64,000 bases of DNA, taken from positions 32,001-96,000 of IMG/VR virus record IMGVR_UViG_3300042923_001106; one strand, given 5' to 3'. Positions 14,672-59,681 of the stretch are shown here, one piece after another (position 1 is the first letter of the stretch; the number at the start of each line of letters is the position of its first letter). The notes beneath the pieces were generated by a model, which worked only from the letters and a program-made list of their open reading frames with translations, had not been told where the DNA came from and did not search any database. Made by a program: the position numbers and the translations under genes. Source of the stretch: a virus.

Positions 14672-14865
14672 TTTGTCCAAAGTGCAATATAAAAATGAAA
14701 CCTAAAACTGATAAAGAATTAAATGAAAAATATTATGATTGTGAGCAATGCGGATTTAATATTTTAAGATCCATTGCAAAAATGAAAATTCACAAGGAGA
14801 CTGAAAGAATAATTAAATACAGTATTCAATAAAATGAAAGTTTGAATTCATAGGAGGGAAAATAA

Positions 14866-15126
14866 ATGACTTATGAAGAAGCCAAAGCACACAAACTAAT
14901 ATTAGAGAAAAAGAATAATACTGATTCTAGCGCGCTGCAATTCTTCGAAAGAAACGCTATGGGATTAATACCGGATCATGTTAGAGAAACGCCAGAATGG
15001 AAAAGTGCTAAAAAGGCTTTTGATAGTTCTTTTGCCGAACTAAGAAACTTTAACGGATGGTTTGTTAAAATGTTTAAAAAAGAAATTTCTGCCGATAGAA
15101 ATTATAAACGATACGTGAGCAAATAA
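14866..15126 (+). CDS. Hypothetical protein
   Basis: 86 aa; stop codon lies inside the 18-bp motif. Confidence 0.75.
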   Translation: MTYEEAKAHKLILEKKNNTDSSALQFFERNAMGLIPDHVRETPEWKSAKKAFDSSFAELRNFNGWFVKMFKKEISADRNYKRYVSK

Positions 15127-15156
15127 AATTTTAATTTTATCATCCAAAATAAAGGA

Positions 15157-15411
15157 GTGTTTACCATTTCGCTATCATACAAAATCAAATTGTTGTCACA
15201 AGAAGAAAAAAGTAAATTTATTAGCATGTTAGATAAATGTTTAAAACTCCAATCTTTTTGGGTTAAATGTTTACTTGATACTAATAAAACAAATGAACAA
15301 TGTGACTTTGCATTAAATAAATTATATTCAATAGAGCAAGAGTTCAGAAACCGATTTAATTATTTGGGTTTGGATAGTTTCAGATTAAACGATAATAAAC
15401 TGTGCCTATAA
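15157..15411 (+). CDS. Hypothetical protein
   Basis: 84 aa; stop codon lies inside the motif. Confidence 0.65.
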   Translation: MFTISLSYKIKLLSQEEKSKFISMLDKCLKLQSFWVKCLLDTNKTNEQCDFALNKLYSIEQEFRNRFNYLGLDSFRLNDNKLCL

Positions 15412-15435
15412 AATGTTACTTTTATTCCTTAAAGG

Positions 15436-15462
15436 ATCGGCAGCCATGCCGGTTTTTGTTTG
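15436..15462 (+). terminator. Intrinsic terminator
   Basis: ATCGGCA-GCCA-TGCCGGT followed by TTTTGTTT. Confidence 0.65.
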
Positions 15463-15605
15463 TGTCTAAGCGTCTATATTCGCTTTATCATTGCTTATCC
15501 AGAATTTAAGTATATCCCTATGATTGAACCTAGAAACGTCTTACATTGGGTTTGTGGCGTTCTCAGCTCATATAAAATAAACATAAACAATAGTAAATAA
15601 AACAT

Positions 15606-15634
15606 TTGTTTATCTATTCTTAGTATGATAATAT
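15606..15634 (+). promoter_or_regulatory. SigA-type promoter
   Basis: TTGTTT-17-TATAAT with TG extension; upstream AAATAAAACAT. Confidence 0.7.
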
Positions 15635-15677
15635 TAATTTTAGGGATTCTATTCGCCCTAACATTAAATAAAATGGA

Positions 15678-16328
15678 GTGGTTTTTATTAAAAAGTGTTC
15701 TGATTGTAATAAAGAAAAACCTTTAAATGAGTATTATTTCAACTTTATTAAAAAGAAAAATGGGGAAGTTAAAATTTCGTATCATCCCAGATGTAGAGCG
15801 TGTTCGGTAATTCGTAATTCTGAATACCGAATAAAAAATGACAACAGAGAGAAAAGATTGGTGACACAAAAGCAATATAATAAACGTGAAGAAACTAAAG
15901 AATATCAAAATAAAATGAGGAGAGATGGATATAGAAAAGAATATTTAAGCGAGTATAGGAAAAGTAATCCTAATAAAATTAAAGAATATAATAAGAAGTA
16001 CTCAAACAAAAAGCATAAAATCACTATGAAAGAATGGGATGCCTGTCGTTTATATTTTGACTATAGGTGTGCATATTGCGGCAAAACTTGGGAGCAGAAT
16101 AAAAAAGAAACAAGAAAAGATTTACATCAAGAACATGCATATGATGACGGTGCGAATGATCTAAGTAATTGTATTCCATCATGTCAAAGTTGCAACAGTT
16201 CAAAACGTGAAAATGATTATATAGAGTGGTATTCGATTAATAACCCTTTGTTTAAGCAGGAAAGAATAGAGAAAATAGATAAATGGTTAATTGAGGAATA
16301 TAAGAGATATATTGAATTCATCCAATAA
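15678..16328 (+). CDS. HNH endonuclease with N-terminal Zn finger
   Basis: CSDC...CRAC at the N-terminus; CAYCG...EH...GANDLSNCIPSCQSCNSSK. Confidence 0.85.
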   Translation: MVFIKKCSDCNKEKPLNEYYFNFIKKKNGEVKISYHPRCRACSVIRNSEYRIKNDNREKRLVTQKQYNKREETKEYQNKMRRDGYRKEYLSEYRKSNPNKIKEYNKKYSNKKHKITMKEWDACRLYFDYRCAYCGKTWEQNKKETRKDLHQEHAYDDGANDLSNCIPSCQSCNSSKRENDYIEWYSINNPLFKQERIEKIDKWLIEEYKRYIEFIQ

Positions 16329-16385
16329 ATTACTGTTTTCATTCACCTATTTAAACTATAATCACAGTAAAGGAGTGAGTACATT

Positions 16386-16604
16386 ATGAATCAAATCACG
16401 AGTTTTTTAATCTATACGCAATACGGATTAGTTAATATCGTACATTCTCTAGAGGAATTGCAGCAGATTGAAAAAATAAATTGGATAAAGGTCGAGATAT
16501 GGAAATTTGGAACACGTCAAAATGTTATCGAAAAATGGAACGGCTACGATAAACTAATGGAATATGCAATCTTTTATTTCAAATTGATTCAGCCTAACAA
16601 ATGA
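16386..16604 (+). CDS. Hypothetical protein
   Basis: 72 aa; stop codon lies in the motif. Confidence 0.65.
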   Translation: MNQITSFLIYTQYGLVNIVHSLEELQQIEKINWIKVEIWKFGTRQNVIEKWNGYDKLMEYAIFYFKLIQPNK

Positions 16605-16638
16605 AAACTGGATTTTATCAATATGAATAAAATAAATG

Positions 16639-16667
16639 TTTGTAATAAAATAAATGTATGATATAAT
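16639..16667 (+). promoter_or_regulatory. SigA-type promoter
   Basis: TTGTAA...TG-A-TATAAT; upstream TAAAATAAATGT. Confidence 0.7.
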
Positions 16668-16990: not shown

Positions 16991-19792
16991 ATGGAGGCGT
17001 TCCAAATGCACTATATTTACAAACGGGAAGCAAAGGTAATGATTGCTCATGCACTCGAAAAAAACGGATGGAAAGTTTACGGCTATCACGAAGACCAATC
17101 CGACAGCATGACCGACTATTATCACCCGGCCTCGTGGGATGGAATCGCTACAAAGAACGGTCATACACTCGTTATTGATAATTCCAATACATACTATTCC
17201 GGTTATGAAGTAAAGAAATATAACTATTCTGCACGTAAAGCTGTTGTAAATAACAATAACAAGATTGAAAAACTTCGTGCACTCGCTAATGATGAAGGAG
17301 CGACAGAAGGAGAAAAGGCGGCAGCACGTGAAGGAATCGAGCGCCTAACAGGTAAAGAAGCAAATGACGAACCTACATGGACAGTCATCGGCACTTACCC
17401 AACGTTTGCCCACGGTAATCCGGGTAAATGTTCATGGCACATAGAAAAAGACGGTCAAATATTGGCTAAAGGAACCGGCGTGTTTGCTTGCAATGAGTAT
17501 GATTGGGAGGACAAGACAAAAACAGCAGCAGAACAGAAACAGGAAAAAGTTACAGATATTATTGCTCGATTTGAAAAGGTATTAGGGGATTCTGATGCAC
17601 TGCAAGCCGAAGTAATTAAAGTTGAAAAGAAAATTATTAAACATGTAGAAATTGAAAAGACAAGTGTAACAGAAAGTGAAATTACCGAATGTTTTACTTT
17701 TATTATGAAGATTGATTACACGGGAGGTAATTGGAAGGGCAATAAATGGCAGATGGTTAGAAGATATGACAGCGAGAAAAGCGGAGCGAACTTTATATTT
17801 CAGCGCTTAGGTAAGCGCGGCAAGCCTGTTAATGGTGATTGGTGGTTAAGTGTTGAAAAACTTAATAAGATTCTTTCCAAAGGACACATTGCAATTGTAG
17901 AAATGCAAGAGGTTACAGAATACGAAGAAAAGACCGTATTTAAGAAAACTGGACGCAAGCAGCCTCAAGCAAACTTTGACAATGACGCTTTACCGGGAGA
18001 TGTTGAGGAGGAAACAACAGAAGAAACTACACAGGAGTCCGCACAAGCAAAGAAACAAACTGTAAAGCATGAAACAGTATCCGACAACGATCAAGCGACT
18101 AAAAAGCAACTATGGGCGCTACACTGTGCAACAAAGTTAAACACGACTAACCTTTTTATTACAAAAACTAAAGCGTCCGAGTTAATCAGCAAATCGAAAG
18201 CCGGTACAGATATAACGGACGAAGTGAAAGCATTATTAGGTATTGTAGACGCTCCAGAAGTGAAAGAGGAGTCGATAAAAGTAAATGCACAAGAGAGTCA
18301 ACAGAACGACGAAGATCCTGCAGATTGGATCTTAGACTATGCCACAAGTATTATAATGGATGATAATACGGATTCGGTTAAGAAACCGGAAACGGAGGAA
18401 GAAAAAGCAGATTTTAGAAACAAAATAATTGAGTATGTGAAGTACAAAGGAGATTCTGTTACCCAATCTCTTATCAATCATTTTATCTCATTAGGTTCTG
18501 GCGTAACCATCTTGTTAATTGTAGAGGCTTTGCAATCATTGAACGGTTCCCATAACAGCATAGACGAATTAAAGCAGGATGATTATACATTCAATATCGA
18601 TTCGTCATATCTGTACCACGATATACATTTCAAAGCATGGAACATGGAAATAGAACAAATTGAGCCGTATTTGAATGTTCGGGAAATACCATTTTACATT
18701 GCTGGTGATAAGTTTATATGTAAAGGTTTGACTATTGAACAAGTACAATTTATCGAAGGTTTGAACGCATCCAATCAGGCGATATTGTTTTATGATGATA
18801 AATACAACGAAAAGCCCAATAACAGCACCAGAACAGAAGAGCTTGAGAATCAGAATGAAAACACAATTTTATCATCCGATAACATTATATATCATAACTT
18901 TACCAGCAACCAAACCAATAAAGAGGAGACTGAAAACGAATATATGATTGACGATGACTTTTTAAGCAAATTTGATAATGTCGAAGTAACAAATGAGTCA
19001 AAGATTGCCGCTGATGACTTGGAATTCTGTAAGGAACAAGAAGACATTTATAAAAAACTTATTTCAACGTATAACAGTTTTAGTAGTCAATTGCAGGACA
19101 TTTCAAAATTAACTAAATCCATTAGTGAAAATTATACTTATACTAATAATGGATATACGCATAGACACGATACAGCATACTCTAGCAGCTTTTCACAAAG
19201 CGATATTAATGAAAAAATTAATAAAATGAAAGATCGCTTTATTAGCACAATCTGCTATTACTTTGAAAGAAAATACAATATAACAATTCAAGAAGAGAAA
19301 ATACAGAAAAAATATAAAGAATCCGTAACACTAGAAAACATTTTAGATGAAATACATATACAGTTAGAAGGATTCAATTTCACTGAGAAAGCAGAAAAAG
19401 AAATCAAGGACAAATCAAAAGAAATTGTAAGAAATAGTGATAAAATTACAATTAAAAACAACAAATTAATAATTGATGCTTGGTTTTCTCGCCTTGATTC
19501 AATTTGGAAAGAGTATAGAACTAACGGAGAAAGACTTACCAATATTTTTAATGCTCTCCAGCACTTCGAAAATGGGCAAATAAAAGGCAATGAGGAACTA
19601 ACTAAGAAATATATTGGCTATGATAACGAACGCAGCCAGTCAAACTATGAACGTTATGAACCGACAACATTAAGTAAAGTTGCTTCGATCAAAATTTTGA
19701 AAAATGGAAAACTTGAAATTGAATTTAAATCAAATCAACAGGCTACACAATTTGCAAAGGTTTATTGCGGATACAATCAAAAATCAGCATAA
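16991..19792 (+). CDS. Large multi-domain (polyvalent-like) phage protein
   Basis: 933 aa with acidic low-complexity linkers; immediately upstream of the MTase-helicase fusion. Confidence 0.7.
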   Translation: MEAFQMHYIYKREAKVMIAHALEKNGWKVYGYHEDQSDSMTDYYHPASWDGIATKNGHTLVIDNSNTYYSGYEVKKYNYSARKAVVNNNNKIEKLRALANDEGATEGEKAAAREGIERLTGKEANDEPTWTVIGTYPTFAHGNPGKCSWHIEKDGQILAKGTGVFACNEYDWEDKTKTAAEQKQEKVTDIIARFEKVLGDSDALQAEVIKVEKKIIKHVEIEKTSVTESEITECFTFIMKIDYTGGNWKGNKWQMVRRYDSEKSGANFIFQRLGKRGKPVNGDWWLSVEKLNKILSKGHIAIVEMQEVTEYEEKTVFKKTGRKQPQANFDNDALPGDVEEETTEETTQESAQAKKQTVKHETVSDNDQATKKQLWALHCATKLNTTNLFITKTKASELISKSKAGTDITDEVKALLGIVDAPEVKEESIKVNAQESQQNDEDPADWILDYATSIIMDDNTDSVKKPETEEEKADFRNKIIEYVKYKGDSVTQSLINHFISLGSGVTILLIVEALQSLNGSHNSIDELKQDDYTFNIDSSYLYHDIHFKAWNMEIEQIEPYLNVREIPFYIAGDKFICKGLTIEQVQFIEGLNASNQAILFYDDKYNEKPNNSTRTEELENQNENTILSSDNIIYHNFTSNQTNKEETENEYMIDDDFLSKFDNVEVTNESKIAADDLEFCKEQEDIYKKLISTYNSFSSQLQDISKLTKSISENYTYTNNGYTHRHDTAYSSSFSQSDINEKINKMKDRFISTICYYFERKYNITIQEEKIQKKYKESVTLENILDEIHIQLEGFNFTEKAEKEIKDKSKEIVRNSDKITIKNNKLIIDAWFSRLDSIWKEYRTNGERLTNIFNALQHFENGQIKGNEELTKKYIGYDNERSQSNYERYEPTTLSKVASIKILKNGKLEIEFKSNQQATQFAKVYCGYNQKSA

Positions 19793-22873: not shown

Positions 22874-23109
22874 GGGAGAATCGAATATTCTCCCTAAAAT
22901 AAAACTTGATTTTTATAAAGTAAAAGTATATAAATAAAATTAACAAGTAAACCAATTGCAGAAATTTTAAGGGAGGAATACAAAAATGTTCAAAAGCGGA
23001 AAAAGGATTAACGGCAAGTTGTATGTGCGAACCCATAAGGGAAATCTAATTGAATTATCGCTGCTAATTATATAAGTAAAAACATAATATAAAAGGGGTT
23101 TTGTTTATA

Positions 23110-23499: not shown

Positions 23500-23720
23500 T
23501 AACTAAACATGATCCAATGAAATCAGAATTTTATTTGGAGTAAAAAATAAAAAATGGAGTGATAACAATGAAAACAAAAGAAGAATTATTAAAGTATTAT
23601 GAAAAGCAACTAGAAAAGGTAACTAACACCTACAAAGATGATCATAGAAAAGAAGAATACATCAAACAAGCAGAGGAAAATTTAGAGGCAGTAAAGAACG
23701 GGAGAGAGTGGTAATTAATT

Positions 23721-23954: not shown

Positions 23955-24161
23955 ATGTTAATACAATACGAAAAAATTAAAGTCGGCGATACATTGATTT
24001 GTAATGTATTAAGTAATAATGGAATTACACAAATCGAACATATTGTAACTAGAATAGAATTTTTGGATATGTATGGAATCAGATCAGATATTAATAAAGA
24101 AGTTGCTATTCTAGGCGCAAGTATCTTAGAACATAAAACGTCTAATAACACAACAAAATAA
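23955..24161 (+). CDS. Hypothetical protein
   Basis: 68-aa ORF. Confidence 0.6.
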   Translation: MLIQYEKIKVGDTLICNVLSNNGITQIEHIVTRIEFLDMYGIRSDINKEVAILGASILEHKTSNNTTK

Positions 24162-24192
24162 TGCTTTCATCGTCACTTAGGAGCGAACCACT

Positions 24193-24438: not shown

Positions 24439-24549
24439 AAGAAGTTTTCGCAGCCCAATGGGACATGTTATAATTGTCATAATATACATAGGCTAACACT
24501 TAACAGTCAAGGGGAATGAAACCAGTCTTTCATAGGATAACAGAGAGGA

Positions 24550-24807: not shown

Positions 24808-24857
24808 TCACCCTAAATAGGTTATAAAACAAGTATTTTATCTCATGAACAGGGGGA

Positions 24858-25130
24858 TTGCCTGTGCGCTGCAAAGTGTCAAATGGGTATGCAGAAATCG
24901 GAGATATTATTTCTGTTAGTGAGTATGGTAATGCGCAATATAAAGTCACTGAGTTTGGGGACTATGAAGGCGCGCCGCAAATTAGATATCGAAGGATTTT
25001 TCCTGAGACTGGTGAATTCTATCCAGATACAATTGGATCATGGATGAGCTTAGAAGATGCTTCAACGGAGTTAAGATTGGTTAGCCAAAAGAAAAAGTTT
25101 AGTCTTCGTAATTGGATTAGTGGCAGATGA
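24858..25130 (+). CDS. Hypothetical protein
   Basis: 90 aa, bounded by motif copies at 24824 and 25127. Confidence 0.65.
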   Translation: MPVRCKVSNGYAEIGDIISVSEYGNAQYKVTEFGDYEGAPQIRYRRIFPETGEFYPDTIGSWMSLEDASTELRLVSQKKKFSLRNWISGR

Positions 25131-25232
25131 AAACGGCATTTTATTTAGGATTTTTCTCTAATGAATTCTACATACACATTGTGGACTAGATTAAGATGCC
25201 AAAGGATATAAAATAAAACCAATGATGTAACT

Positions 25233-25544: not shown

Positions 25545-25854
25545 AAGTTAATCACCTACAATGGAAGGTAAGATATCCTGTTATTTTATGAAGTGAGCAT
25601 AATGATTGATTGGACACATCGACAAAAAAGTAATTAAATAAAAAGTATAAATAAAAAGTGTATTTCATGTGGTGAACTAGGAGTTGAAATTGATGAATAA
25701 TTTGTTATGTAAATTGTCTGGACATTCACTTGATTTCTCAAAAGTTGTTGGACGACTATCAAAAACAAATTTAGTGAAATACAGATGTGTGCGATGCAAC
25801 AAAATAGTTGTGTGTAGATGAAATGTATCTTTCATTATGGAGGAGTGATGAAAA

Positions 25855-26142: not shown

Positions 26143-26207
26143 CCCAAATAACATTAATAAATAAAAAAATCTACATTTTATTCGATAACAGAGGAGGAGC
26201 AAACAAC

Positions 26208-26396
26208 ATGAAATCTTTGGTTGGGTATAATGTTAAAGTTGAAACATCCAGACAGAATTATAGCGGAGTTGTAGTTGGTCATTTATTCCAGTCCAGTAAA
26301 GTAGATGTGAAGATTACAGAAGTAATCAAAGGAAATAAGAAAGTAGGAAAAGTCGCTCGGTTCTCAATGGATCAAATTACAACGGTTTCGGCATAA
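26208..26396 (+). CDS. Hypothetical protein
   Basis: 62 aa; stop codon lies in the motif. Confidence 0.65.
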   Translation: MKSLVGYNVKVETSRQNYSGVVVGHLFQSSKVDVKITEVIKGNKKVGKVARFSMDQITTVSA

Positions 26397-26429
26397 AATT
26401 TGCATTTTAACGGGAGGGAAGGGGTTAAA

Positions 26430-26783
26430 ATGATTAATCTGTATGTTGACGATCTTCGTGATTGTCCTGAAGGCTTCGTTGTTGCTCGTACATATGAAGA
26501 AGCAATTAACCTTGTGGAAAATAACGAAATTGAAATCCTTACACTTGATCATGACCTTGGAGAAGACGCCAATGGCAAGGAACTTCCCAATGGATATGAC
26601 TTCGTTAAATGGTTCTGTGAAAACGGTAAACGAGCAAACAAAATTTATCTTCATACCGACAACCCTGTGGGTCGCAATAATATGTATGAAACGCTTCTCG
26701 CTGCTCAAAGAAGAGGTTTTATTGATGAAGATATTGAAATTTATCATTATCCGATTACGGCAAACAAATATTCTGGGCAATGA
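26430..26783 (+). CDS. Cyclic-phosphate-processing receiver-like domain protein (second paralog)
   Basis: LYVDDLRDCP...LTLDHDLG...GYDF...LHTDNPVG; bounded by motifs at 26393 and 26780. Confidence 0.75.
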   Translation: MINLYVDDLRDCPEGFVVARTYEEAINLVENNEIEILTLDHDLGEDANGKELPNGYDFVKWFCENGKRANKIYLHTDNPVGRNNMYETLLAAQRRGFIDEDIEIYHYPITANKYSGQ

Positions 26784-26812
26784 AATATCTATTTCATTAG
26801 GAGGACTAACGA

Positions 26813-26974
26813 ATGGTTGAAAAGAAAGATTTCGAATTATTCACTAAAACATATCTTGCAGCAGGAGAAATGTTTGATTATGACGGGGATTCTTATGTTA
26901 CGATTTCTATTCTGGAAGTAAGAAGCAATTGGGAAGGAAAATGCATCATCACAGCACTTGTTGTTAAGCAATAA
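26813..26974 (+). CDS. Small hypothetical protein (53 aa)
   Basis: GGAGG RBS after motif 26780; TAA lies in motif 26971. Below the ORF-track cutoff. Confidence 0.6.
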   Translation: MVEKKDFELFTKTYLAAGEMFDYDGDSYVTISILEVRSNWEGKCIITALVVKQ

Positions 26975-27217
26975 AATGTCCATTTTAATTGGAGGAGTAA
27001 ACGAAGATGAGATATCCTACTTTATACGATAAGGATCAGATTGAATCAATTGTGTATCGACTTGTGGGCTACTGGAACAACGATAACTATGTACAATTTG
27101 TTAAACAATCAAATGAACTTTATGAGAAATACGGAGAGTTTCAAGCAGATGAGTTGATGAAAAAGATTAAGCAACAAATAAAATAATTGTTTTATTAACT
27201 AAAAGGAGTGAAAATAA

Positions 27218-28007: not shown

Positions 28008-28112
28008 CGGTGGAGGCGAAAGCCTCTTTTTTGTTGTAATATTCTCAATGTGCGATTTTAAGAAATAAAAGAGCCGTTTTATTTACCGGCTCCTAGAAGT
28101 GTGTCCATATAT

Positions 28113-28772: not shown

Positions 28773-28844
28773 GTGGATAAAAGGGTTATTTCAATTGGTT
28801 AATAAAGTTGGTTTGAATAAATTATTGGAGGCGTTTATTGTAAT

Positions 28845-29150
28845 ATGATAACTAACAATCGTAACGAGATAGTGCAAAAATCCTTTCAATTGCAAGTTAG
28901 ACTTTCTAAAATGGCTAAAGAGGATAATCAGAATGAATTATTAAAAGCTTTACATAGCAATCATAACCAATTAAGACTTGATTATCGAATGAAAAGAATT
29001 TCATTTGAACAATTTCACGATGGATTTTTGTTAGTTAGCAATACTCTTGGTGAGATAGACAGGATTAGCACGGAGATACTAATGGATGCAGTTGAAAAGT
29101 TAGGACAGATGTCTTTATTGCATGGACGTCAAAATGTGGGGATAAAATGA
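28845..29150 (+). CDS. Hypothetical protein
   Basis: 101-aa ORF ending in motif 29142. Confidence 0.65.
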   Translation: MITNNRNEIVQKSFQLQVRLSKMAKEDNQNELLKALHSNHNQLRLDYRMKRISFEQFHDGFLLVSNTLGEIDRISTEILMDAVEKLGQMSLLHGRQNVGIK

Positions 29151-29187
29151 CTGTTTCATCATCTTCAATGCTTCAGGAGGATTACAT

Positions 29188-33258: not shown

Positions 33259-33289
33259 AATAATCCTTTCAATTGGGAGATGATGAAAC

Positions 33290-43806: not shown

Positions 43807-43833
43807 AATTCGTAATTCATAGGAGGAGTTTAA

Positions 43834-44379: not shown

Positions 44380-44502
44380 GGTTATCAAATAAAATCCGCA
44401 TTTTATAAAATAAAAATATAGAGTATTAATTAAATTTGATTAAGAATACCTCTTATACATAACATATCAGTCACCTTAGAGAATGACAAAAAAATCAAAG
44501 AG

Positions 44503-45863: not shown

Positions 45864-45903
45864 AATCCTGATTTCATACTAACAATAAAAGGAGAATGAA
45901 AAA

Positions 45904-46206
45904 ATGACAGAGTTAATTAGTTATCCAGAACACGAAAAATTGAAAAAGGTAAGAGATAAATCACAAGCGATTGGAGAATTCCTTGTGTGGCTACAAGAAA
46001 GATATACGCTCTGTAGTTATTTACCTGTCAGTACCAGATTGACCGAGGAGGGGCATATTGAGATTGTAGAAGATGAACGCGCCAGACATCCTTTCCATGT
46101 GCCCGTAACAAAAAATATCGAAGACTACTTATCCGATTATTTTGGAATCGATCAAGAGAAATTGGAAAAAGAAAAACGTCAAGCGTTAGCGGCACTAAGG
46201 CAATAA
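45904..46206 (+). CDS. Hypothetical protein
   Basis: 100 aa, motif-bounded. Confidence 0.7.
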   Translation: MTELISYPEHEKLKKVRDKSQAIGEFLVWLQERYTLCSYLPVSTRLTEEGHIEIVEDERARHPFHVPVTKNIEDYLSDYFGIDQEKLEKEKRQALAALRQ

Positions 46207-46242
46207 AACACGGAATTTATTGGGAAAGGAAGAGAATACAAA

Positions 46243-46428
46243 ATGAATGGTGCAGAAGTCCAAATCAGAGACAAAACATCCAGATTTGATGGGATGGTTG
46301 GAAGGATTGTGAAAGTCCAGAAGACACTGCAAGGAAACGATCTTTATATAGTAGCAATGAATCCATTCATCTCTGAGTCATTCTTTCCTGATGAAGTGTT
46401 TGTTTTAGATGATCCAATAAAAAACTGA
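46243..46428 (+). CDS. Hypothetical protein
   Basis: 61 aa, motif-bounded. Confidence 0.6.
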   Translation: MNGAEVQIRDKTSRFDGMVGRIVKVQKTLQGNDLYIVAMNPFISESFFPDEVFVLDDPIKN

Positions 46429-46448
46429 TTTTATGGGGAGGAATCAGA

Positions 46449-46757: not shown

Positions 46758-46793
46758 AGTGATAAAACGGAGATTTCATTCGAATACAAAGGA

Positions 46794-47168: not shown

Positions 47169-47414
47169 GAATAAAAGATTGGTTTCATGGGGAGTGGATG
47201 ATTTGGAGGAATTATTGGCTGTAATCGAGCGATACAAAGAAACATTTAAGCGAAAAGAAAGATTGCTTAAACCATATCGTGATAAAAAAGAACGACAGAA
47301 GATTTACTTATAAATGAATCAATCTCAATGTTAATTTTGGAGGCCGAAATACGTCAATTGAAAGAAATCATCGAGGATCTTGAACATGTTGTTAGCAGAT
47401 AAAAGACTCGTTTC

Positions 47415-47648
47415 ATGGGGAGGGTGAATAGCTTGAGGAGTAAGGTGCCAACTAATATTAAAGAGGCAATCAGAAAAGCAGCGAAATATAATGCTAAGGC
47501 AAAACAGTATGAGGATATTGTTGAACGTTGGTTTGCAGCAAATGGAGTTGAAGAGAATGATAGCTTCAGGGATACATTTATTGATTGTGTGCAACAAAGT
47601 CCCGATCCTGAAAGGGCAATTGAGGTTTTTGAAAGATACTTAAACTAG
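47415..47648 (+). CDS. Hypothetical protein
   Basis: 77-aa ORF. Confidence 0.55.
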   Translation: MGRVNSLRSKVPTNIKEAIRKAAKYNAKAKQYEDIVERWFAANGVEENDSFRDTFIDCVQQSPDPERAIEVFERYLN

Positions 47649-47685: not shown

Positions 47686-47910
47686 ATGTTGCTGTTAATT
47701 TATCAGAATCAATTAGAATCCTTCCCTGTGTACAAAATACAGTGCCACAAAACACTTCTACGTACATGTCTTAAGAATGGATGGGTAGAAGAAAAGGAAA
47801 ACGATACTGTTATTGTAACTGACGCAGGTCTTGAGGCGGCAATGATTGAAATAGCTCCGCTTTATGAGCGCAATAAGGCAGCACAAATCGGACAAACATT
47901 TTCAGGATAA
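47686..47910 (+). CDS. Hypothetical protein
   Basis: 74 aa; stop codon lies in the motif. Confidence 0.55.
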   Translation: MLLLIYQNQLESFPVYKIQCHKTLLRTCLKNGWVEEKENDTVIVTDAGLEAAMIEIAPLYERNKAAQIGQTFSG

Positions 47911-47953
47911 AATACTAGTTTTATTTTGAAATAAACACAAAGGAGATGACGGC

Positions 47954-48193: not shown

Positions 48194-48224
48194 AAGAAAG
48201 AACTGTTTTATCTGGGAGGATGAA

Positions 48225-48680
48225 ATGGAATCGTTGAATGGACTGTTCCTAGAAAAAATGAAAATGTTAGTTCATTGCCATACTGGTCTGCCTCTAATAG
48301 AATTTGATAATGACTACTACGAAAAAACCACAATGTTTATGGGTTATAACTTTGGTGAAAAACTTATAGCATATAATCTACCAATGTACGAACTTAATAA
48401 GAGTCAAATTCCTGAATTAGCACATCTTTCATTAGAGGAGTTTTTTGAAATAGCAGTTTATCACGAAATAGGACACCATCTTGATTACATTGCAAACCCG
48501 AATAGGAAGATATACAGAGAAATGCATGTTAACGATGCGACCAATGAGTTTATTCTTGAAGGTGAACTCAATGCTTATAAATATGGTAGGGATCTTGTGC
48601 CCGACTCCCTAATAAGTTATTACGATATTTTGAACCAATTCAACATAGAGAAGTACAATGAAGTGGCAAATGAAACCTGA
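48225..48680 (+). CDS. HExxH (zincin-like) metalloprotein
   Basis: AVYHEIGHHLD...EGELNAYKYG. Confidence 0.6.
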   Translation: MESLNGLFLEKMKMLVHCHTGLPLIEFDNDYYEKTTMFMGYNFGEKLIAYNLPMYELNKSQIPELAHLSLEEFFEIAVYHEIGHHLDYIANPNRKIYREMHVNDATNEFILEGELNAYKYGRDLVPDSLISYYDILNQFNIEKYNEVANET

Positions 48681-48918
48681 ATTTCATTCTCAGTTTAAAA
48701 AAGAAATGAGGACTACAAATATGAAGTTTTCAAAAGAAGAATTAGAAGACATGGAAAATGCGATTGATATCGATGTGGAAACAAATAAGGCTTTCTGTCC
48801 TCGTTGTGGTACTGAAATATTAATAAGACAAGAATTTAATAAATGCCCAGATGTAGCGTGTGGGTGGAGACAGTACATGAGAAATAAAAAGACTAGCGAA
48901 AAGTATTATGGTTCTTAA
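48658..48918 (+). CDS. Zn-ribbon hypothetical protein
   Basis: CPRC...CPDVAC; true start probably 48721. Confidence 0.5.
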   Translation: MKWQMKPEFHSQFKKEMRTTNMKFSKEELEDMENAIDIDVETNKAFCPRCGTEILIRQEFNKCPDVACGWRQYMRNKKTSEKYYGS

Positions 48919-48976
48919 TTAATGGATCGAGGCTATGAAAACTGACTTTTATCAGTTGGCAAGGAGGTATTTTTAA

Positions 48977-49984: not shown

Positions 49985-50272
49985 TTGAAATTGTCCACAT
50001 CATTAGTTGTTCTTCTAGTAATTTTCATTATCGTTATCTTTATTTTCGGAAAATCGAATAAGCGGCGTTTTGGACGTAGGGGATATACAAAGGGCTACAA
50101 TAGAAATAGTTATGATGAAACAAGACAACAAAGAGAACAAGAAAGGACCATCAGATATTTGGAAAGGCAGCAAGAGAGAGAAGAAAGATATTCAAAGAGG
50201 CATGGCCAAAGTTATAATTTTCGGAACAATAAGTCTAAATTTGGTCAAACAAACAAGAGCAGATTTAAATAA
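49985..50272 (+). CDS. Small N-terminally anchored membrane protein
   Basis: N-terminal TM helix plus basic tail; stop codon lies in the motif. Confidence 0.65.
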   Translation: MKLSTSLVVLLVIFIIVIFIFGKSNKRRFGRRGYTKGYNRNSYDETRQQREQERTIRYLERQQEREERYSKRHGQSYNFRNNKSKFGQTNKSRFK

Positions 50273-50302
50273 AAGGTCAATTTCATGTGATGGGGTGATA
50301 AG

Positions 50303-50590
50303 ATGAAGCAATCTGACTATAATCGAGCAGCAAGAAAAATTGCCAGAGCGAATGCTGCTTTATGGGATGCTATTGGTCTAATTAACGAAGCATTATCAGA
50401 TCCAGTTATCAGTAAACTCCTTGAGGAACATGATAATGACAAACAAAAACTTTTTGAGAAGTTAGCTACTGCTTATGAAAAGATCAATAAGAAGTATGAT
50501 GGTTTTATAGATGCTGGAATGCATGGTAGAGATATTGATGATTTTGATAATTTTACAACCAAGTTTGCGGAAGTGTTGGAAACCGAATAA
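50303..50590 (+). CDS. Hypothetical protein
   Basis: 95 aa, bounded by exact motifs. Confidence 0.7.
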   Translation: MKQSDYNRAARKIARANAALWDAIGLINEALSDPVISKLLEEHDNDKQKLFEKLATAYEKINKKYDGFIDAGMHGRDIDDFDNFTTKFAEVLETE

Positions 50591-50639
50591 AATGTCAGTT
50601 TCATTTTTTTAAGTAACAGTAAATTAAAGGAGTAGGTTT

Positions 50640-50909: not shown

Positions 50910-50955
50910 GATGAAGTAAATAAAAAATCCATTTCATTAGGTGAGAGGGGAAAAG

Positions 50956-51429: not shown

Positions 51430-51481
51430 TATAGATTATGAAAAGTTCATTTTATAATCTCTTAATTGGAGGCGTTGTTGA

Positions 51482-51902: not shown

Positions 51903-52373
51903 ATGAAATACACCTATGATTACTTTAGCAGAAATCGTGAGATTACACTAAGAAAATTATTAAATATTGAAGGTTCATATTCATCCATTTCAATCCGCGA
52001 ATTTTATGGAGAAGGTAAAAACCCAAATGAAAATCGCGCTATAAACTCTCTAGATCGAGGATTGTATATAATACAAAAGGGCAATTCCAGTGCTTCTGTT
52101 GATGATCTATTGAATTGTAACTTTAGTGATATTTTAAAAATAAGGAATGCTGGTAAGGGCTCTCATATAATTATTTTGAATGGAATTCTCGATTATTTTA
52201 AACTTGGGAAAATTATCGATGAACCAGAATTAATACGGTCGTACAAATGTGAAATAGATAAATTGATCCAGAGTTGTGATAATGACTCGTTAAAAGAAAT
52301 TATTTATTTACTTTTTGAAGAGCTGTCAATTATTGAAGCAGAAAAAGCATTAAGAAAAATAAAAGACAAGTAA
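51903..52373 (+). CDS. Protein with RNAP alpha-CTD-like segment
   Basis: RAINSLDRG...SVDDLLNCNFSDILKIRNAGKGSHIII. Confidence 0.5.
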   Translation: MKYTYDYFSRNREITLRKLLNIEGSYSSISIREFYGEGKNPNENRAINSLDRGLYIIQKGNSSASVDDLLNCNFSDILKIRNAGKGSHIIILNGILDYFKLGKIIDEPELIRSYKCEIDKLIQSCDNDSLKEIIYLLFEELSIIEAEKALRKIKDK

Positions 52374-52415
52374 TGAAAATACTATTTTATTTCTTTCTAT
52401 AGAAAGGAATTTTAA

Positions 52416-53018: not shown

Positions 53019-53057
53019 ATGAAAAGACTCTTTCATGGGGAAGTAGGAGGTGCATAA

Positions 53058-53318
53058 ATGAGACTTACAGATAAAACGGGTGCTTGGGATAGATTAAAAA
53101 GATGGGAAGGAAAGTATAAAAAGTTTGAAGTATCAATTAGTCAGGGCAGTAGTGATCCACTTAGAGGCATTGTAGACTGCTATTACTTCGTGGTAATTTG
53201 CAACGAACCTGATTTAAGACACAATTCTTTGTGGACTAAGGATAAATACAGTTCAAAAGAAGAGGCTGAACAAGCAGCAATTAACTGGATTGATGAAAAA
53301 CTGAAGGCAATAAAATAA
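53058..53318 (+). CDS. Hypothetical protein
   Basis: 86-aa ORF with RBS. Confidence 0.65.
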   Translation: MRLTDKTGAWDRLKRWEGKYKKFEVSISQGSSDPLRGIVDCYYFVVICNEPDLRHNSLWTKDKYSSKEEAEQAAINWIDEKLKAIK

Positions 53319-53585
53319 CGGTGTTGTAGAAAGGGAGAGGGGAAAATGTATAAGGTTGGAGATTGGGTTAAAACATCTCAGACATCAAGCGACTTTATAA
53401 GAATAATTGAACTCAGCGAATCAGACTCTAAAGGTGGGACACCTGTACGGGTATCATAGCAAATACTCTAAGAGAAGGAAACCAGCGGGGTTCAATACAA
53501 ATATAAATGAGAACAAGTCAGAAATGTACAAAGGGTAGAAGCGAATAATAAAATAACTTTCATAGGGAAATAGGAGGCATTAAAT

Positions 53586-54407
53586 TTGAGCAAAGCTAAA
53601 AAGAAAATCGATGTAAACTCAGAAGAATTTAAAGTGCAGCAACACAGGGATAATCTTATACGTATTGAGGAACGATTGATTCACATTCCAGAGCCAACTG
53701 TTACTTTTGAGATTGGAGAAAGTGTAAGGGTGGGTAGTCTTGAAGATGAGATTGTTTTTTCAATTCTTCATGGTGGCAAAATTCTTGAAATCGATTATAC
53801 CTCTGTTAAGTCAAATTACGGAAATCCAATTCGCGAGGAGCATCAAAAGGGGTATTGGACATGGACAGAGACAAGAAAGAAAAATGACAATGTTAATTCT
53901 CTAATTGAAAACGACGATATCCGTTTGAACTACTCTCAAACCCATCTACGTGGATTGCTAACTAAAGTCTATCATTTTGGCGTAGATTTTAATCCTGATT
54001 ATCAGCGTGATTACGTTTGGGATGAGAGCGACAAAGTTAAGTTAATTGATGCAATATACAAAAATGTAGACATTGGGAAGTTCGCCTTTGTTCGGGTATC
54101 CGATAGAAAGTGGGAAGATAACGGGCATATCTACAGTTATGAAATTCTAGACGGTAAGCAGCGACTCAGAGCAATTCTCGATTATTATGAAAATCGTTTC
54201 CCGTACAAAGGATTTTATTTCAATGACTTATCACGCAGGGATCAAAATCATATGATGGAATACAGTGTTAATGTGGCCGAAGTATCCGAGCTAACTTACG
54301 AGCAAACGTTACGATACTTCCTGATGCTCAACACTAGTGGACGGATTATGAGTGAAGAACATCTAGACAAGGTTCGTCAATTGCTTGATCAAGAGACGAT
54401 GAAATAA
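53586..54407 (+). CDS. DUF262 (ParB/GmrS-like) domain protein
   Basis: FNPDYQRDYVW...LIDAI...EILDGKQRLRAI...FLMLNTSG. Confidence 0.85.
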   Translation: MSKAKKKIDVNSEEFKVQQHRDNLIRIEERLIHIPEPTVTFEIGESVRVGSLEDEIVFSILHGGKILEIDYTSVKSNYGNPIREEHQKGYWTWTETRKKNDNVNSLIENDDIRLNYSQTHLRGLLTKVYHFGVDFNPDYQRDYVWDESDKVKLIDAIYKNVDIGKFAFVRVSDRKWEDNGHIYSYEILDGKQRLRAILDYYENRFPYKGFYFNDLSRRDQNHMMEYSVNVAEVSELTYEQTLRYFLMLNTSGRIMSEEHLDKVRQLLDQETMK

Positions 54408-54434
54408 CGGTTTCATTGAGAGGTAGGGTTAATA

Positions 54435-54855: not shown

Positions 54856-54885
54856 CAAATAAACGATGATTTTATGGGATGAGAG

Positions 54886-55200
54886 GTGAGTAATGTGGAG
54901 TATGGAGTTTTCAATGGAAGAGAATTGATTCAAACATTTGAAAATGATGAGGAAGGTAAGGAGATCGCACTCAATTTATTTAAGGAATCAGGAGAAGTAT
55001 ATTTTTGTAGAAGATTACACTTTGATGAGTTAACAGAAGATTCTAAAATTCGCAGACTAAAAAATCGACTTGATGAGTTAAACGAATTTCTGGATCGAGC
55101 CAAAGAATCTGGTAGAACATATAGGTCGGACACATCAATAAATGCCGATGAACTTGAATGGCTGCTTAACTTAGCACAAAAACAATTACAGATGAAATGA
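54886..55200 (+). CDS. Hypothetical protein
   Basis: 104-aa ORF. Confidence 0.65.
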   Translation: MSNVEYGVFNGRELIQTFENDEEGKEIALNLFKESGEVYFCRRLHFDELTEDSKIRRLKNRLDELNEFLDRAKESGRTYRSDTSINADELEWLLNLAQKQLQMK

Positions 55201-55222
55201 CGACTTCAAAGGAAGTGAGAAA

Positions 55223-55768: not shown

Positions 55769-55832
55769 AGAGATAAAGATTTTTGAGCAATTCCGATGAG
55801 AACATGCTTTTATCTGATAAAAGGTTAGGAAG

Positions 55833-57127: not shown

Positions 57128-57526
57128 ATGGAGGACAGAAGGATGAATCCAAAAGAAATTGGTAAGAGAATAGTGTATGTTCTACAGCTTGAAAATGATT
57201 ATTTTTATGTTGGACAAACGCCATATTTAGTTAAAAGATTGGATGAACATAAAAGGAACAAAGGATCTGTCTGGACTAAGATTCATAAGTACGAATACCT
57301 GATTGAAACTTATGATGCGGGGTCATGTACATCGAAAGATGCAGAGGCCCTTGAGAATGAAGTAGTCATAAAGTATATGAAAGACAAAGGATGGAGGAGA
57401 GTTAGGGGAGGTAATTTAAGTGCTATTGATGAGAAGGAAATATTGAGAGTACTATTGAAATTTCCGAAAAAGTATAACCTAGATCAAGAATTTATAAATA
57501 TTCTAACTGCCAGTCAATCTGAATAA
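57128..57526 (+). CDS. GIY-YIG nuclease
   Basis: IVYVLQLENDYFYVGQT...RLDEH...LENEV...VRGG. Confidence 0.8.
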   Translation: MEDRRMNPKEIGKRIVYVLQLENDYFYVGQTPYLVKRLDEHKRNKGSVWTKIHKYEYLIETYDAGSCTSKDAEALENEVVIKYMKDKGWRRVRGGNLSAIDEKEILRVLLKFPKKYNLDQEFINILTASQSE

Positions 57527-57563
57527 AACAACAATTTCAATTGATTGTAAAGGAGTATGAAAT

Positions 57564-57872
57564 TTGAATAAAATAGAAAGAAATTATTTATTTGAACTAT
57601 ACAATAACTCTAATTTTGTCCCTAACATCAAAAACAATATGGATATTGGAGCAGCTACTAGTCAGAGATATGACTTAATGGAACAGTCCAAATTAATCAA
57701 ATCACTTTCATACGCTATTCTTATGTTAGGTTCAGAAGATGATAAGGAATATTGGAAAGAAGAATGCGATGAAGCATTGCATGAATTAATGGAGTTTCGA
57801 AAACATAGAGAGGAGGAAAATTGGAATCCTAGAACAACATATGGATACACAGTAAATTTAAGTGGTTGGTAA
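57564..57872 (+). CDS. Hypothetical protein
   Basis: 102-aa ORF. Confidence 0.65.
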   Translation: MNKIERNYLFELYNNSNFVPNIKNNMDIGAATSQRYDLMEQSKLIKSLSYAILMLGSEDDKEYWKEECDEALHELMEFRKHREEENWNPRTTYGYTVNLSGW

Positions 57873-58110
57873 TATGATAAAACAAATAATTCATGGGGAG
57901 TTGACGTACATGCAAGAGTTTAAATTTAAAGGGAAAGTTGTTACCGATCCTATTGACGAAAATAATGTAGCATGGTTAATAGAAGATTCTTTTGGAGTAC
58001 GACACAATGCAGCAGACCTTCTAACTGGAATTGATCTCCTGAGTAATAGTTTCCGCACTGAAGATGGAGATGAAGTAGAGATTATAGTTCATAAGAAGGT
58101 CATAAAATAA
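57862..58110 (+). CDS. Hypothetical protein
   Basis: ORF; true start probably downstream of motif 57877. Confidence 0.55.
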   Translation: MVGNMIKQIIHGELTYMQEFKFKGKVVTDPIDENNVAWLIEDSFGVRHNAADLLTGIDLLSNSFRTEDGDEVEIIVHKKVIK

Positions 58111-58361
58111 TACTTTTATAGGGTGGTGATAAAGTGGCTACGAGCAAGGAACTTGAAGAAGAGCGAAAAACAATTGCAATGCGAGTTTTTCAATTGCATG
58201 GTGTTGCTGTTGATGTTGGCGGATATAATACTAGACAGTTAAAAGATATTGAAAGAATGCTCGATCAGTCTTACACTTATCATAAATTAAATGATACAAA
58301 AAATGAATAAAACAATTCTTTCATTTGGGCAGTCGGAACTTAATAACGATGGGAGACTAAT

Positions 58362-58793
58362 ATGGGAATGTATTATAGTTTGAGATGTAAGCTGAAATTA
58401 AAAAAAGATTTCGTACCATTGATCCAATCATTATTAGATAGTGACAATGATGATGAATGGAGTAATTTAAAAACTGAGATTGATTCGATAAGAGAATACT
58501 CTAAAGCTGATCGAGCATCTTTTATACCGTTTGGAGGGTTGGCATATTCGCCAGAGTTGTGGCAGTCAGAAGAGGATGAGTGGTGCAATGAGATAGTGAA
58601 TGACACTTGGACTTTCCAATGCAGTATAAAGACACTAAGTACAATCGAGTCGTTTTTTCAAAATGTAGTCCCAATTATTACGGAAGTATCATTGCATATT
58701 GAATTATTTTATGAAGAAGATAATAATTCAACGTTTTACAAACTAATCGAAGGTGCGGTCATTGAAACAGGCGAAATGATCACATATGATTGA
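58362..58793 (+). CDS. Hypothetical phage protein
   Basis: 143-aa ORF. Confidence 0.7.
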   Translation: MGMYYSLRCKLKLKKDFVPLIQSLLDSDNDDEWSNLKTEIDSIREYSKADRASFIPFGGLAYSPELWQSEEDEWCNEIVNDTWTFQCSIKTLSTIESFFQNVVPIITEVSLHIELFYEEDNNSTFYKLIEGAVIETGEMITYD

Positions 58794-58857
58794 CTTTCAG
58801 ATGAAACAGCGATCTTAATTAACGAATACTCTCTGTAAATAATTCTCTAGCATTATA

Positions 58858-58876
58858 CGAACATACGTTCTATAAT
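58858..58876 (+). promoter_or_regulatory. LexA/DinR box abutting a -10 element
   Basis: CGAAC-ATAC-GTTCT (58858-58871), then TATAAT at 58871-58876. Confidence 0.8.
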
Positions 58877-58984
58877 AGCGATATAGCCACTACACTATTT
58901 AAGTGGAACCCAGAGATGTCAGTTTCGTACCTTTTTGACTCAATTAGGAGCAATAAAATAGCGTTTTTATAGGAGGGAAATAAA

Positions 58985-59425
58985 ATGACAATTCGTGCTA
59001 TCGAGAACCCAACTTGGAGTAATGGAATCAAGGAAACATTGACACCATACTCTACATCGTTCGAGTTTGAAGGAGTGCCTGACGATAATCCTTTAGACAG
59101 ATATGAGTGGTTCGAGCTTGTTAACGAAGACGGAGCAACTCAGGGAGTCGGTTGGATTGAAATAGACAAATTTATGGGGAAAGTGGAATGTGAAATATCG
59201 TTATGCGTAAATAGTAACCATAGGACAGTTCGAGGAATTGGAGTGAGATTGTTAGAACATTTAGAAGATGTGGCTACTAATAAATCTGCAGATATCTTTT
59301 TGGCAATTGTTAAGATGAGTAACCCTGAACATGATCAGGTTGTAAGTTGGTTTGAAAGAAGAGGATATACAATCGATCCAGAAGAATCCTCCAATACTAA
59401 CACTTGTCTGAAGAAACATATGTAA
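58985..59425 (+). CDS. GNAT-family acetyltransferase
   Basis: EISLCVNSNHRTVRGIGVRLLEHLE...N...VSWFERRGY; bounded by exact motifs at 58953 and 59425. Confidence 0.8.
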   Translation: MTIRAIENPTWSNGIKETLTPYSTSFEFEGVPDDNPLDRYEWFELVNEDGATQGVGWIEIDKFMGKVECEISLCVNSNHRTVRGIGVRLLEHLEDVATNKSADIFLAIVKMSNPEHDQVVSWFERRGYTIDPEESSNTNTCLKKHM

Positions 59426-59681
59426 TAAAATTGGCATTTCATTTCATTTGATCATTGGAGAGTTCCAAGTTTTGAAGAGTATGATGAATATATAAATCGG
59501 CACCTGTAAAACGGGACTATTTTCCTATTATAAATAAACAAAAAGTAATTTGAAAAATAAAACTAATACATATATCCTCAATAATATGAAAATAAAAATT
59601 GAGGTGTTTATGTGTTTGTTTTATTTTTTAATATTTGTGATATAATATATACCAAAGGGTAAAAAATGAGGAGTTGAGGTA

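Follow-up and report, generated by a model that had tools for sequence, protein, structure and literature searches.

The stretch of DNA analyzed here (the window; 64,000 nucleotides) comprises bases 32,001 to 96,000 of a single 183,208-bp virus record, IMGVR_UViG_3300042923_001106, and carries an array of small genes whose junctions are marked by an 18-bp palindrome, ATRAAA-N6-TTTYAT. The record belongs to the linear class of IMG/VR, CheckV rates it 100% complete, and the sequencing runs that contain it are soil metagenomes. A six-frame comparison showed that the phage is a distant relative of SPbeta, with protein identities mostly around 30% and the same gene set. This set includes minus-strand tail and tape-measure genes, an HU-like YonN, YopP-, YopQ- and MrpR-like genes, an SprA-like serine integrase, YorF, YorG (Sak4-like), a RecJ-like protein, a DNA polymerase and a YotM-like protein. 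When the array was compared with phage records by megablast, no match was returned. One serine recombinase (SprA-like) and two tyrosine recombinases (YomM-like and YopP-like) are encoded in the record, along with MrpR, which is of an inactive type.

Our analysis provides good support for the palindrome as a real and phage-specific element that is conserved at gene junctions. The original prediction, made from the letters of the window, had counted 36 exact and 18 one-mismatch copies by eye, and had put the chance expectation below one exact match per window. Scanning the window yielded 41 exact copies and 64 with at most one mismatch, and the low expectation was borne out (0.30 exact copies; maximum of 3 in 100 dinucleotide shuffles). 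Across the whole record, 76 exact copies were present versus 0.45 in shuffles, and 124 copies with at most one mismatch versus 13.4. The first copy in the window begins at 14834 and the last at 59425, as predicted (14834-59442). Nevertheless, the end of the array at about 59.4 kb is partly an artefact of the window, because the record holds copies far downstream: 31 exact copies lie beyond the window, reaching contig position 171 kb, and another 4 lie in the late minus-strand arm. Past 59.4 kb the array is sparser yet ongoing, running through replication and nucleotide-metabolism genes, and in the late arm copies are rare. No copy lies in the lysogeny module at window 59.5-64 kb, which holds the YopQ, MrpR and Agr-like genes.

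The placement of the copies is equally regular. In the plus arm, 96 of 117 copies have an open reading frame (ORF) of at least 40 codons that ends between -40 and +12 from the start of the site, in agreement with the predicted location at gene junctions. The TRA of the left arm is itself the stop codon of the upstream gene in 45 of the 96 scorable copies, and in 84 of them the stop falls within the site or no more than 12 nt upstream of it. The start codon of the next gene follows at a median of 22 nt past the site, which places the palindrome just ahead of the next ribosome-binding site (RBS). At junctions that also carry a promoter, the palindrome stays with the upstream stop codon and not with the promoter or RBS, and no promoter consensus was found flanking the palindromes. 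Copies had been described as absent from long ORFs and from insertion sequence (IS) elements. The second half of this statement stands, since none lies within 39285-42652, where the IS elements had been placed; the first half does not, since an exact copy (18855) and a one-mismatch copy (19050) sit within a 933-aa ORF (16991-19792). The genome of Paenibacillus medicaginis, which has a related prophage, holds 44 exact copies, 41 of them in the prophage, within a single stretch of 147 kb; the remaining 5.65 Mb have 3. The host chromosome therefore does not have a motif density similar to that of the phage, a possibility that had been raised with the original prediction as fatal to the motif's significance.

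The conserved arms measure 6 bp (7 with the flanking A/T) around a 6-bp spacer, which is the geometry of lox/dif-type sites. Self-complementary spacers number 0-1, and the spacer alone gives the site its polarity. This geometry was the argument first offered for recombination sites; taken by itself it is weak, because many helix-turn-helix dimers share it. The spacers are more informative. No spacer is repeated within a genome (0 versus 3.6 expected, P = 0.019; 0 versus 3.1, P = 0.033), and neighbouring spacers resemble each other, with a mean identity of 2.49 versus 1.74 in this phage and of 2.40 versus 1.79 in the P. medicaginis prophage (P < 0.0002 and beyond every shuffle in each case). 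Neighbour pairs exactly two differences apart number 24 in this phage against 3.9 expected, and the changes fall mostly at the outer spacer positions. The central dinucleotide, which is the part of the spacer that neighbours share best, is common to 21 of 80 pairs (5.3 expected) and to 15 of 60 (5.0 expected). The relatedness is restricted to the spacer, to the nearest neighbour and to direct orientation. The simplest reading of these patterns is that a gene entering at a site would duplicate the site, and that the two copies would persist only once they had diverged beyond mutual recombination. The situation resembles that of heterospecific lox sites, for which two spacer changes are needed for full incompatibility. 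The idea that genes are gained at the sites, part of the original prediction, is strengthened to this extent: the relatedness of neighbours and the lack of repeated spacers point to insertion at sites.

Two other sources of the related spacers were considered and rejected. Tandem gene duplication behind the related spacers was ruled out: adjacent genes are never paralogues, and none of the only 5 paralogue pairs in the record is adjacent. Regional base composition was ruled out likewise, as the signal is gone at a lag of 2 or more and in the flanks. A serine-recombinase reading is unsupported, since palindromic central dinucleotides are not avoided (32 versus 30, and 33 versus 28).

Comparison with relatives showed what happens between the sites. 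One comparison was with L005, a contig of a near relative whose MrpR is 95% identical. Thirteen consecutive L005 sites are matched by sites in the window, all in the same order (13/13 collinear). Twelve of the 13 have identical spacers (6/6), that is, 12 of the 30 L005 sites compared with 1.4 by shuffling; at the thirteenth (L005:5307; window ~56620) the spacer is intact and the left arm has a 1-nt indel. Not one substitution was seen in the 72 shared spacer positions, while the shared blocks are 85-94% identical and the two-state arm positions frequently differ between partner sites. Nine of the 12 intervals between shared sites lack blastn or tblastx similarity and differ in length, and most of the shared sites are 18-bp islands with flanks at random level on both sides. 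Since sites persist between unrelated genes, crossovers must have been restricted to the sites themselves, and at many sites on either side. Where blocks of homology to L005 do occur, they start at the first base of a site or stop just past its last. One homologous gene occupies different slots in the two phages (L005 6881-7100 versus window 47964-48183; 70% nucleotide identity). In addition, the copies at 53310 (decayed) and 54399 (intact) have the same spacer and flank one 273-aa gene, and L005 has a single site with this spacer at the corresponding position. This pair, the sole clear case of its kind, is possibly the footprint of one insertion.

Variant joints were sought in contigs from three soil metagenomes aligned on window 43000-62999. 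Near-identical variants revealed 14 replacements or skips, and 14 of their 28 endpoints lay no more than 5 nt from a site compared with 1.07 expected (maximum of 6 in 2000 trials). In these variants a conserved block has the first base of a site as its left edge and the last base of a site as its right edge. On its own the breakpoint evidence is weak, because every gene boundary here holds a site. Taken together with the spacers, we consider an ordered scaffold of unique spacers, at which gene content is exchanged, to be well supported by these alignments. The breakpoints of gain and loss thus fall on the edges of the motif, as the original prediction had anticipated. Of its proposed single-gene units, we retain that they are bounded by the site and gained or replaced there; they are not shuffled, because the order of sites is strictly collinear. 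Soil metagenome run X1, the probable source sample, also contained a minor variant at about one-tenth of the depth with other slot contents, and slot variants therefore coexist in one soil sample. A backward joint (59751 -> 57485) seen in the metagenome contigs lies away from any site and is unexplained.

The same kind of site was found in well-known members of the group (the sites of the window and associated features are listed in Table 1). SPbeta has 36 junction palindromes of the form TRAAA-N6-TTTYA, and phi3T has 20 in 50 kb; in both phages flanking bases lengthen the site to 11-6-11. The element is absent from the SPbeta GenBank annotation, and no description of it was found in the SPbeta literature searched, which did not cover the original 1999 genome paper. 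Fourteen of the 20 phi3T sites have an identical-spacer partner in SPbeta, all of them collinear (14/14), and 5-6 are islands. Block ends between the two phages coincide with sites in 4 of 24 cases versus 0.25 expected, and one 3.2-kb block, 99.97% identical, spans exactly from site to site. Metagenomic and Paenibacillus relatives have the 18-bp form of the palindrome, although their MrpR proteins are only 40-95% identical. The palindrome is thus common to phages with diverged MrpR, which argues for an old conserved feature of the group that is separate from the repressor operator.

Table 1. Junction palindromes and associated features, in window coordinates.
Feature	Coordinates	Strand	Remarks
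Junction palindrome, 1 mismatch	14834..14851		
Junction palindrome, exact	15123..15140		
Junction palindrome, exact	15408..15425		
Junction palindrome, 1 mismatch	16325..16342		
Junction palindrome, exact	16601..16618		
Palindrome, exact, within 933-aa ORF	18855..18872		
Palindrome, 1 mismatch, within 933-aa ORF	19050..19067		May be chance
Junction palindrome, exact	22899..22916		
Junction palindrome, exact	23517..23534		
Junction palindrome, 1 mismatch	24153..24170		
Junction palindrome, exact	24516..24533		
Junction palindrome, exact	24824..24841		
Junction palindrome, exact	25127..25144		
Junction palindrome, exact	25651..25668		
Junction palindrome, exact	25818..25835		
Junction palindrome, 1 mismatch	26164..26181		
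Junction palindrome, 1 mismatch	26393..26410		
Junction palindrome, exact	26780..26797		
Junction palindrome, 1 mismatch	26971..26988		
Junction palindrome, exact	27178..27195		
Junction palindrome, exact	28065..28082		
Junction palindrome, 1 mismatch	28777..28794		
Junction palindrome, exact	29142..29159		
Junction palindrome, exact	30542..30559		
Junction palindrome, 1 mismatch	31152..31169		
Junction palindrome, 1 mismatch	32927..32944		
Junction palindrome, 1 mismatch	33255..33272		
Junction palindrome, exact	34222..34239		
Junction palindrome, 1 mismatch	35012..35029		
Junction palindrome, 1 mismatch	35238..35255		
Junction palindrome, 1 mismatch	35546..35563		
Junction palindrome, 1 mismatch	35726..35743		
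Junction palindrome, 1 mismatch	36157..36174		
Junction palindrome, exact	36478..36495		
Junction palindrome, exact	38507..38524		
Junction palindrome, exact	39001..39018		
Junction palindrome, exact	39225..39242		
Junction palindrome, 1 mismatch	43803..43820		
Junction palindrome, exact	44389..44406		Variant-phage homology restarts at its first base
Junction palindrome, exact	45860..45877		
Junction palindrome, 1 mismatch	46203..46220		Joint just past site
Junction palindrome, exact	46417..46434		Joint 4 nt past site
Junction palindrome, exact	46762..46779		
Junction palindrome, exact	47171..47188		Joint at first base
Junction palindrome, exact	47399..47416		Joint at last base
Junction palindrome, exact	47907..47924		
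Junction palindrome, 1 mismatch	48194..48211		
Palindrome, 1 mismatch, within ORF	48258..48275		May be chance
Junction palindrome, exact	48670..48687		Joint at last base
Junction palindrome, exact	48935..48952		
Junction palindrome, exact	50269..50286		Joint 2 nt ahead of site
Junction palindrome, exact	50587..50604		
Junction palindrome, exact	50920..50937		
Junction palindrome, exact	51438..51455		Spacer = L005:1227, flanks unrelated
Junction palindrome, exact	52373..52390		Spacer = L005:1689
Junction palindrome, exact	53019..53036		Spacer = L005:2332
Decayed palindrome, 2 mismatches	53310..53327		Spacer = site at 54399
Junction palindrome, exact	54399..54416		Spacer = L005:2565, flanks unrelated
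Palindrome, 2 mismatches	54858..54875		Spacer = L005:3896
Palindrome, 2 mismatches	55192..55209		Spacer = L005:4415
Junction palindrome, 1 mismatch	55796..55813		Spacer = L005:4945
Junction palindrome, 1 mismatch	57523..57540		Spacer = L005:6344, flanks unrelated
Junction palindrome, 1 mismatch	57877..57894		Spacer = L005:6540, flanks unrelated
Junction palindrome, exact	58102..58119		18/18 identical to L005:6830, flanks unrelated
Junction palindrome, exact	58307..58324		18/18 identical to L005:7110, flanks unrelated
Palindrome, 2 mismatches	58801..58818		Spacer = L005:7311
Junction palindrome, exact	58953..58970		
Junction palindrome, exact	59425..59442		Final copy in window
YopP-like two-domain tyrosine recombinase	8338..9378	+	Pfam, YopP identity, fold; candidate enzyme
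YopQ-like protein, DndB-type domain	59682..60989	+	Always pairs with MrpR gene
MrpR (YopR) homologue, lysogeny repressor	60993..61991	+	Pfam MrpR_N_CB, MrpR_C_cat
SPBRE-like box ATAAAATAAA joined to strong sigma-A-type promoter	11116..11157	+	
SPBRE-like box + promoter	11720..11761	+	
SPBRE-like box + promoter	12048..12090	+	
Double SPBRE-like box + promoter	16627..16667	+	

With this in mind, we looked at the recombinases of the phage for an enzyme that might act at the palindromes. The YopP-like protein matches the Pfam families Phage_integrase and Phage_int_SAM_1, both over the cut-off, and has 30% identity to YopP of SPbeta; its gene belongs to the core set of this phage group. Members of the family retain the catalytic residues R-K-H-(R/K)-(H/W)-Y. 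A structural model of the protein (predicted local distance difference test score, pLDDT, 86.7) gave XerA, XerH, Cre, Tn1549 Int and IntI as the best folds, with IntI (2a3v) ranking 12th, behind Xer and Cre. The fold is of the two-domain Xer/Cre type and has no arm-binding domain. A phmmer search of the protein against PDB sequences found no match, and no function is assigned to YopP in the SPbeta literature searched. Xer and Cre are two-domain enzymes that act on simple palindromic sites. Because the model resembles two-domain enzymes, several of which act on simple palindromes, the YopP-like recombinase is a plausible candidate, and the best one, for an enzyme acting at these sites.

Based on these observations, we propose that the palindromes may be recombination core sites of the lox/dif kind, with spacers serving as addresses for slot-by-slot exchange of genes; we give this proposal an even chance of being correct. 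In SPbeta-like phages, the sites would partition the early and accessory arm into slots, each holding one gene or a few. A symmetric phage protein would bind the two invariant arms on double-stranded DNA, and the 6-bp spacer would be both crossover region and address, with exchange taking place only between sites of the same spacer. Having a different spacer at every site would suppress internal deletions. Relatives, whether co-infecting or resident, would share the ordered addresses, and the content of a slot could be swapped via its two flanking sites, a natural parallel to the cassette exchange carried out with heterospecific lox sites. Insertion of DNA into a site would duplicate that site and so create a new slot, with the daughters then differing by about two changes at the outer spacer positions. 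The boundaries of exchange do lie at identical-spacer sites, where homology-driven exchange would look similar. The fullest version of the proposal is a natural, genome-wide system of cassette exchange in which a dedicated YopP-like recombinase cuts and rejoins more than 100 lox-like sites with unique addresses. We advance this version tentatively and think it rather doubtful.

Several points weigh against the proposal. Binding and catalysis at the sites are what we infer from sequence, and YopP is tied to the sites solely by its co-occurrence with them in the same phages. Most YopP-like members, this one included, have Lys in place of the second catalytic Arg, and for an enzyme of the tyrosine-recombinase type arms of 6-7 bp are short. 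Phage genomes often have mosaic breakpoints at gene boundaries, and short islands of identity, acted on by general recombination (for instance through the phage's Sak4-type annealing protein), could yield both scaffold and breakpoints with no dedicated enzyme. The relatedness of neighbouring spacers was not seen in SPbeta or phi3T, which offer only 15 and 10 pairs. Decayed same-spacer duplicates within 3 kb are at background level (19 and 23 versus 13-22 and 11-29 in displaced controls), and no circular cassettes were seen among the metagenome contigs.

The main alternative is that the palindrome is a cis-regulatory site for a DNA-binding dimer of phage or host, and that exchange is a by-product of recombination at short homology. 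The site might act as a roadblock or silencer of lytic operons, in the manner of mycobacteriophage stoperators or KorB operators, with exchange occurring as at the promoter early stem-loop elements (PeSLs) described below. We regard this as possible, though on balance unlikely. The 6-N6-6 geometry fits any helix-turn-helix dimer, and the distribution of the palindrome (none in the lysogeny module, few in the late arm) recurs in SPbeta. Selection on each copy in every infection would also explain why the arms are kept from Bacillus to Paenibacillus phages. Regulatory elements that double as recombination substrates have a precedent (PMC2839356), and 15 of 16 laboratory hybrids of phi3T and SPbeta arose at regions of homology (bioRxiv 10.1101/2020.05.06.055103). 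However, a plain operator gives no reason for perfect spacer conservation between relatives, for spacer uniqueness within a genome, or for the relatedness of neighbouring spacers in direct orientation only. One site per gene is also much denser than silencing requires, and the attachment of the palindrome to the upstream stop codon, with no promoter consensus beside it, is not what a plain operator would lead one to expect.

Three further explanations are each contradicted by a test. A strict integron-like system, in which a dedicated integrase excises single-gene circles and reinserts or shuffles them at attC-like sites, is a narrower form of the integron-like behaviour first proposed for this array, and it appears very unlikely. 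Such a system would fit the promoterless small genes in one orientation with a palindrome at each stop codon, the tyrosine recombinase gene upstream of the array, content that varies slot by slot between relatives, often one gene at a time, and the homologous gene found in different slots. It does not fit the strict collinearity of sites in L005 or between SPbeta and phi3T, nor an 18-bp site without evidence of pairing where a folded attC measures 55-140 bp. Moreover, excision between neighbouring sites should be blocked, since no two spacers are the same; a gap of 5.5 kb separates the recombinase gene from the first site, without any attI/Pc arrangement; IntI is not a better match to the recombinase model than Xer or Cre; and the metagenome contigs contain no circle junction at a site. 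An RNA element, such as a hairpin that serves RNA processing, termination or the control of translation, is the least credible of the explanations, despite the position of the palindrome within polycistronic transcripts, between stop codon and next RBS. The R position of the left arm and the Y position of the right arm show no covariation, and the non-pairing A..C combination is the commonest one (25 of 76 exact copies), so that in a third of copies an A.C mismatch would interrupt the 6-bp A-U stem at its middle. Extra pairs in the spacer are scarcer than chance (18 versus 25 expected). Half-sites that are symmetric in sequence but unpaired point to a double-stranded DNA site for a symmetric protein and not to a hairpin. 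The third explanation, that the palindrome is the MrpR operator and so this phage's equivalent of the SPbeta repeated element (SPBRE), had been put forward as the alternative in the original prediction. In favour of this, MrpR folds like a tyrosine recombinase and has a repeated element as its target in SPbeta, where chromatin affinity precipitation sequencing (ChAP-seq) gave ten peaks at named promoters, all containing SPBRE (PMC10516654), and a homologue is encoded in the window. We derived SPBRE from the ten ChAP-seq-peak upstream regions in the SPbeta record; 9 of the 10 have the core ATATGTATA, with ACAAA repeats before it and overlapping the promoter. This element has nothing in common with the junction palindrome, of which SPbeta has 36 copies against ten reported peaks. 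The phage studied here has its own promoter-linked box, ATAAAATAAA, in about 10 copies immediately before the -35 element of sigma-A-type promoters with an extended -10. Across phages whose MrpR proteins share only 40-54% identity the palindrome stays the same, whereas the promoter box varies. The MrpR explanation is refuted by these differences, SPbeta itself carrying both elements, and we regard it as extremely improbable.

The ATAAAATAAA box is probably the operator of the MrpR homologue and the counterpart of SPBRE. Within 10.5-17.5 kb it accompanies the four highest-ranking promoter matches, and it occurs at several other places (window 12461, 15572, 32956 and 44405; contig 122194 and 148577-148595), and an SPBRE-like box is also present in the relatives L007 and L011. 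The closest named relatives of the MrpR homologue are in Paenibacillus, and single-protein locus searches with it in genome and viral contigs confirmed no locus. In L004 and L006 (P. chitinolyticus and P. lutrae), YopQ-MrpR pairs lie amid ordinary host genes with no palindromes nearby; these are probably prophage remnants in which the repressor pair has survived decay. Immediately downstream of the MrpR gene, an Agr-like operon (window 62153-63923) encodes a membrane protein, AgrB, a small peptide ORF and a LytTR-type protein, and AgrB is in the same position in L005, L011 and L012. This operon may be a peptide-signalling module that replaces arbitrium.

Other genes of the window can be described briefly. 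A protein with a DarA-like C-terminal domain is encoded at 12506-13888, and two very large ORFs (933 and 1006 aa) occupy 16991-22873. The 1006-aa product has 44% identity to an annotated helicase of Clostridium phage D-1873 and resembles DarB-type helicase-methylases. Together, the DarA-like protein and the two ORFs may form an anti-restriction module. The two large ORFs called IS elements in the original prediction (39285-41054, plus strand; 41081-42652, minus strand) have a G+C content of 40-44%, compared with 34% in the phage DNA around them, and the array is interrupted there. On the minus strand, a 916-aa ORF (3562-6312) has no Pfam match; its position is that of the YonO-type single-subunit RNA polymerase in relatives (in L006, 853 aa with an RdRP-family match).

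Several known systems resemble this one in part. The closest are the loxP, dif and difH sites and cassette exchange with lox or FRT sites. There, as here, inverted arms surround a short asymmetric spacer, exchange is apparently limited to sites of the same spacer, and a segment between two different sites is swapped whole; related neighbouring sites differ by about two spacer changes, and this phage encodes a two-domain Xer/Cre-like recombinase. What differs is that the present array is natural and has more than 100 sites, each with its own spacer, that the arms are 6-7 bp here and 11 bp in SPbeta compared with 11-13 bp in sites of the lox/dif type, and that the second catalytic Arg is often Lys and catalysis is inferred only. 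In integrons, too, promoterless genes in one orientation each have a recombination-type palindrome, and a tyrosine recombinase is encoded on the same element. However, attC is a long, folded single strand of variable sequence, whereas these palindromes are short and double-stranded, and integron cassettes enter at attI and reorder, whereas here the order is fixed and replacement is slot-wise. The stoperators of cluster A mycobacteriophages, the sites of the L5 repressor, are asymmetric 13-mers oriented with transcription. They likewise occur as dozens of copies of one short site in the short intergenic gaps of a temperate phage; unlike them, the arms described here are palindromic. We know of no reported spacer role or exchange scaffold for stoperators. 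SPBRE is similar in being a repeated intergenic element of SPbeta-like phages whose binding protein has a recombinase fold, but it has another sequence and marks about 10 promoters compared with more than 100 gene junctions, and both elements coexist in SPbeta and in this phage. Finally, the PeSLs of T4-type phages consist of a sigma-70 promoter and a terminator stem-loop and recombine by homology (Arbiol et al. 2010, PMC2839356). Like the palindromes, they are short conserved elements that flank orphan genes in plastic regions of a large phage genome and mark insertions, deletions and replacements between close relatives. In contrast to PeSLs, the palindrome has neither promoter nor stable stem, and each position in the fixed order has a unique spacer.

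Neither an ordered set of addresses nor the relatedness of neighbouring spacers was found in the literature searched, and even if general recombination were responsible for the exchange, conserved ordered addresses and related neighbours would stay unexplained. Since SPbeta and phi3T have the same kind of site, the proposal is directly testable in Bacillus subtilis by existing genetics. The sites could also supply many mutually incompatible recombination sites for genome engineering. If the proposal is true, it would assign a function to the conserved recombinase YopP. Accessory genes would be swappable one slot at a time with no risk of internal deletion, and slots would arise by insertion at sites. 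This would explain how small orphan and anti-defence genes are reassorted gene by gene while the SPbeta-like genome remains intact.

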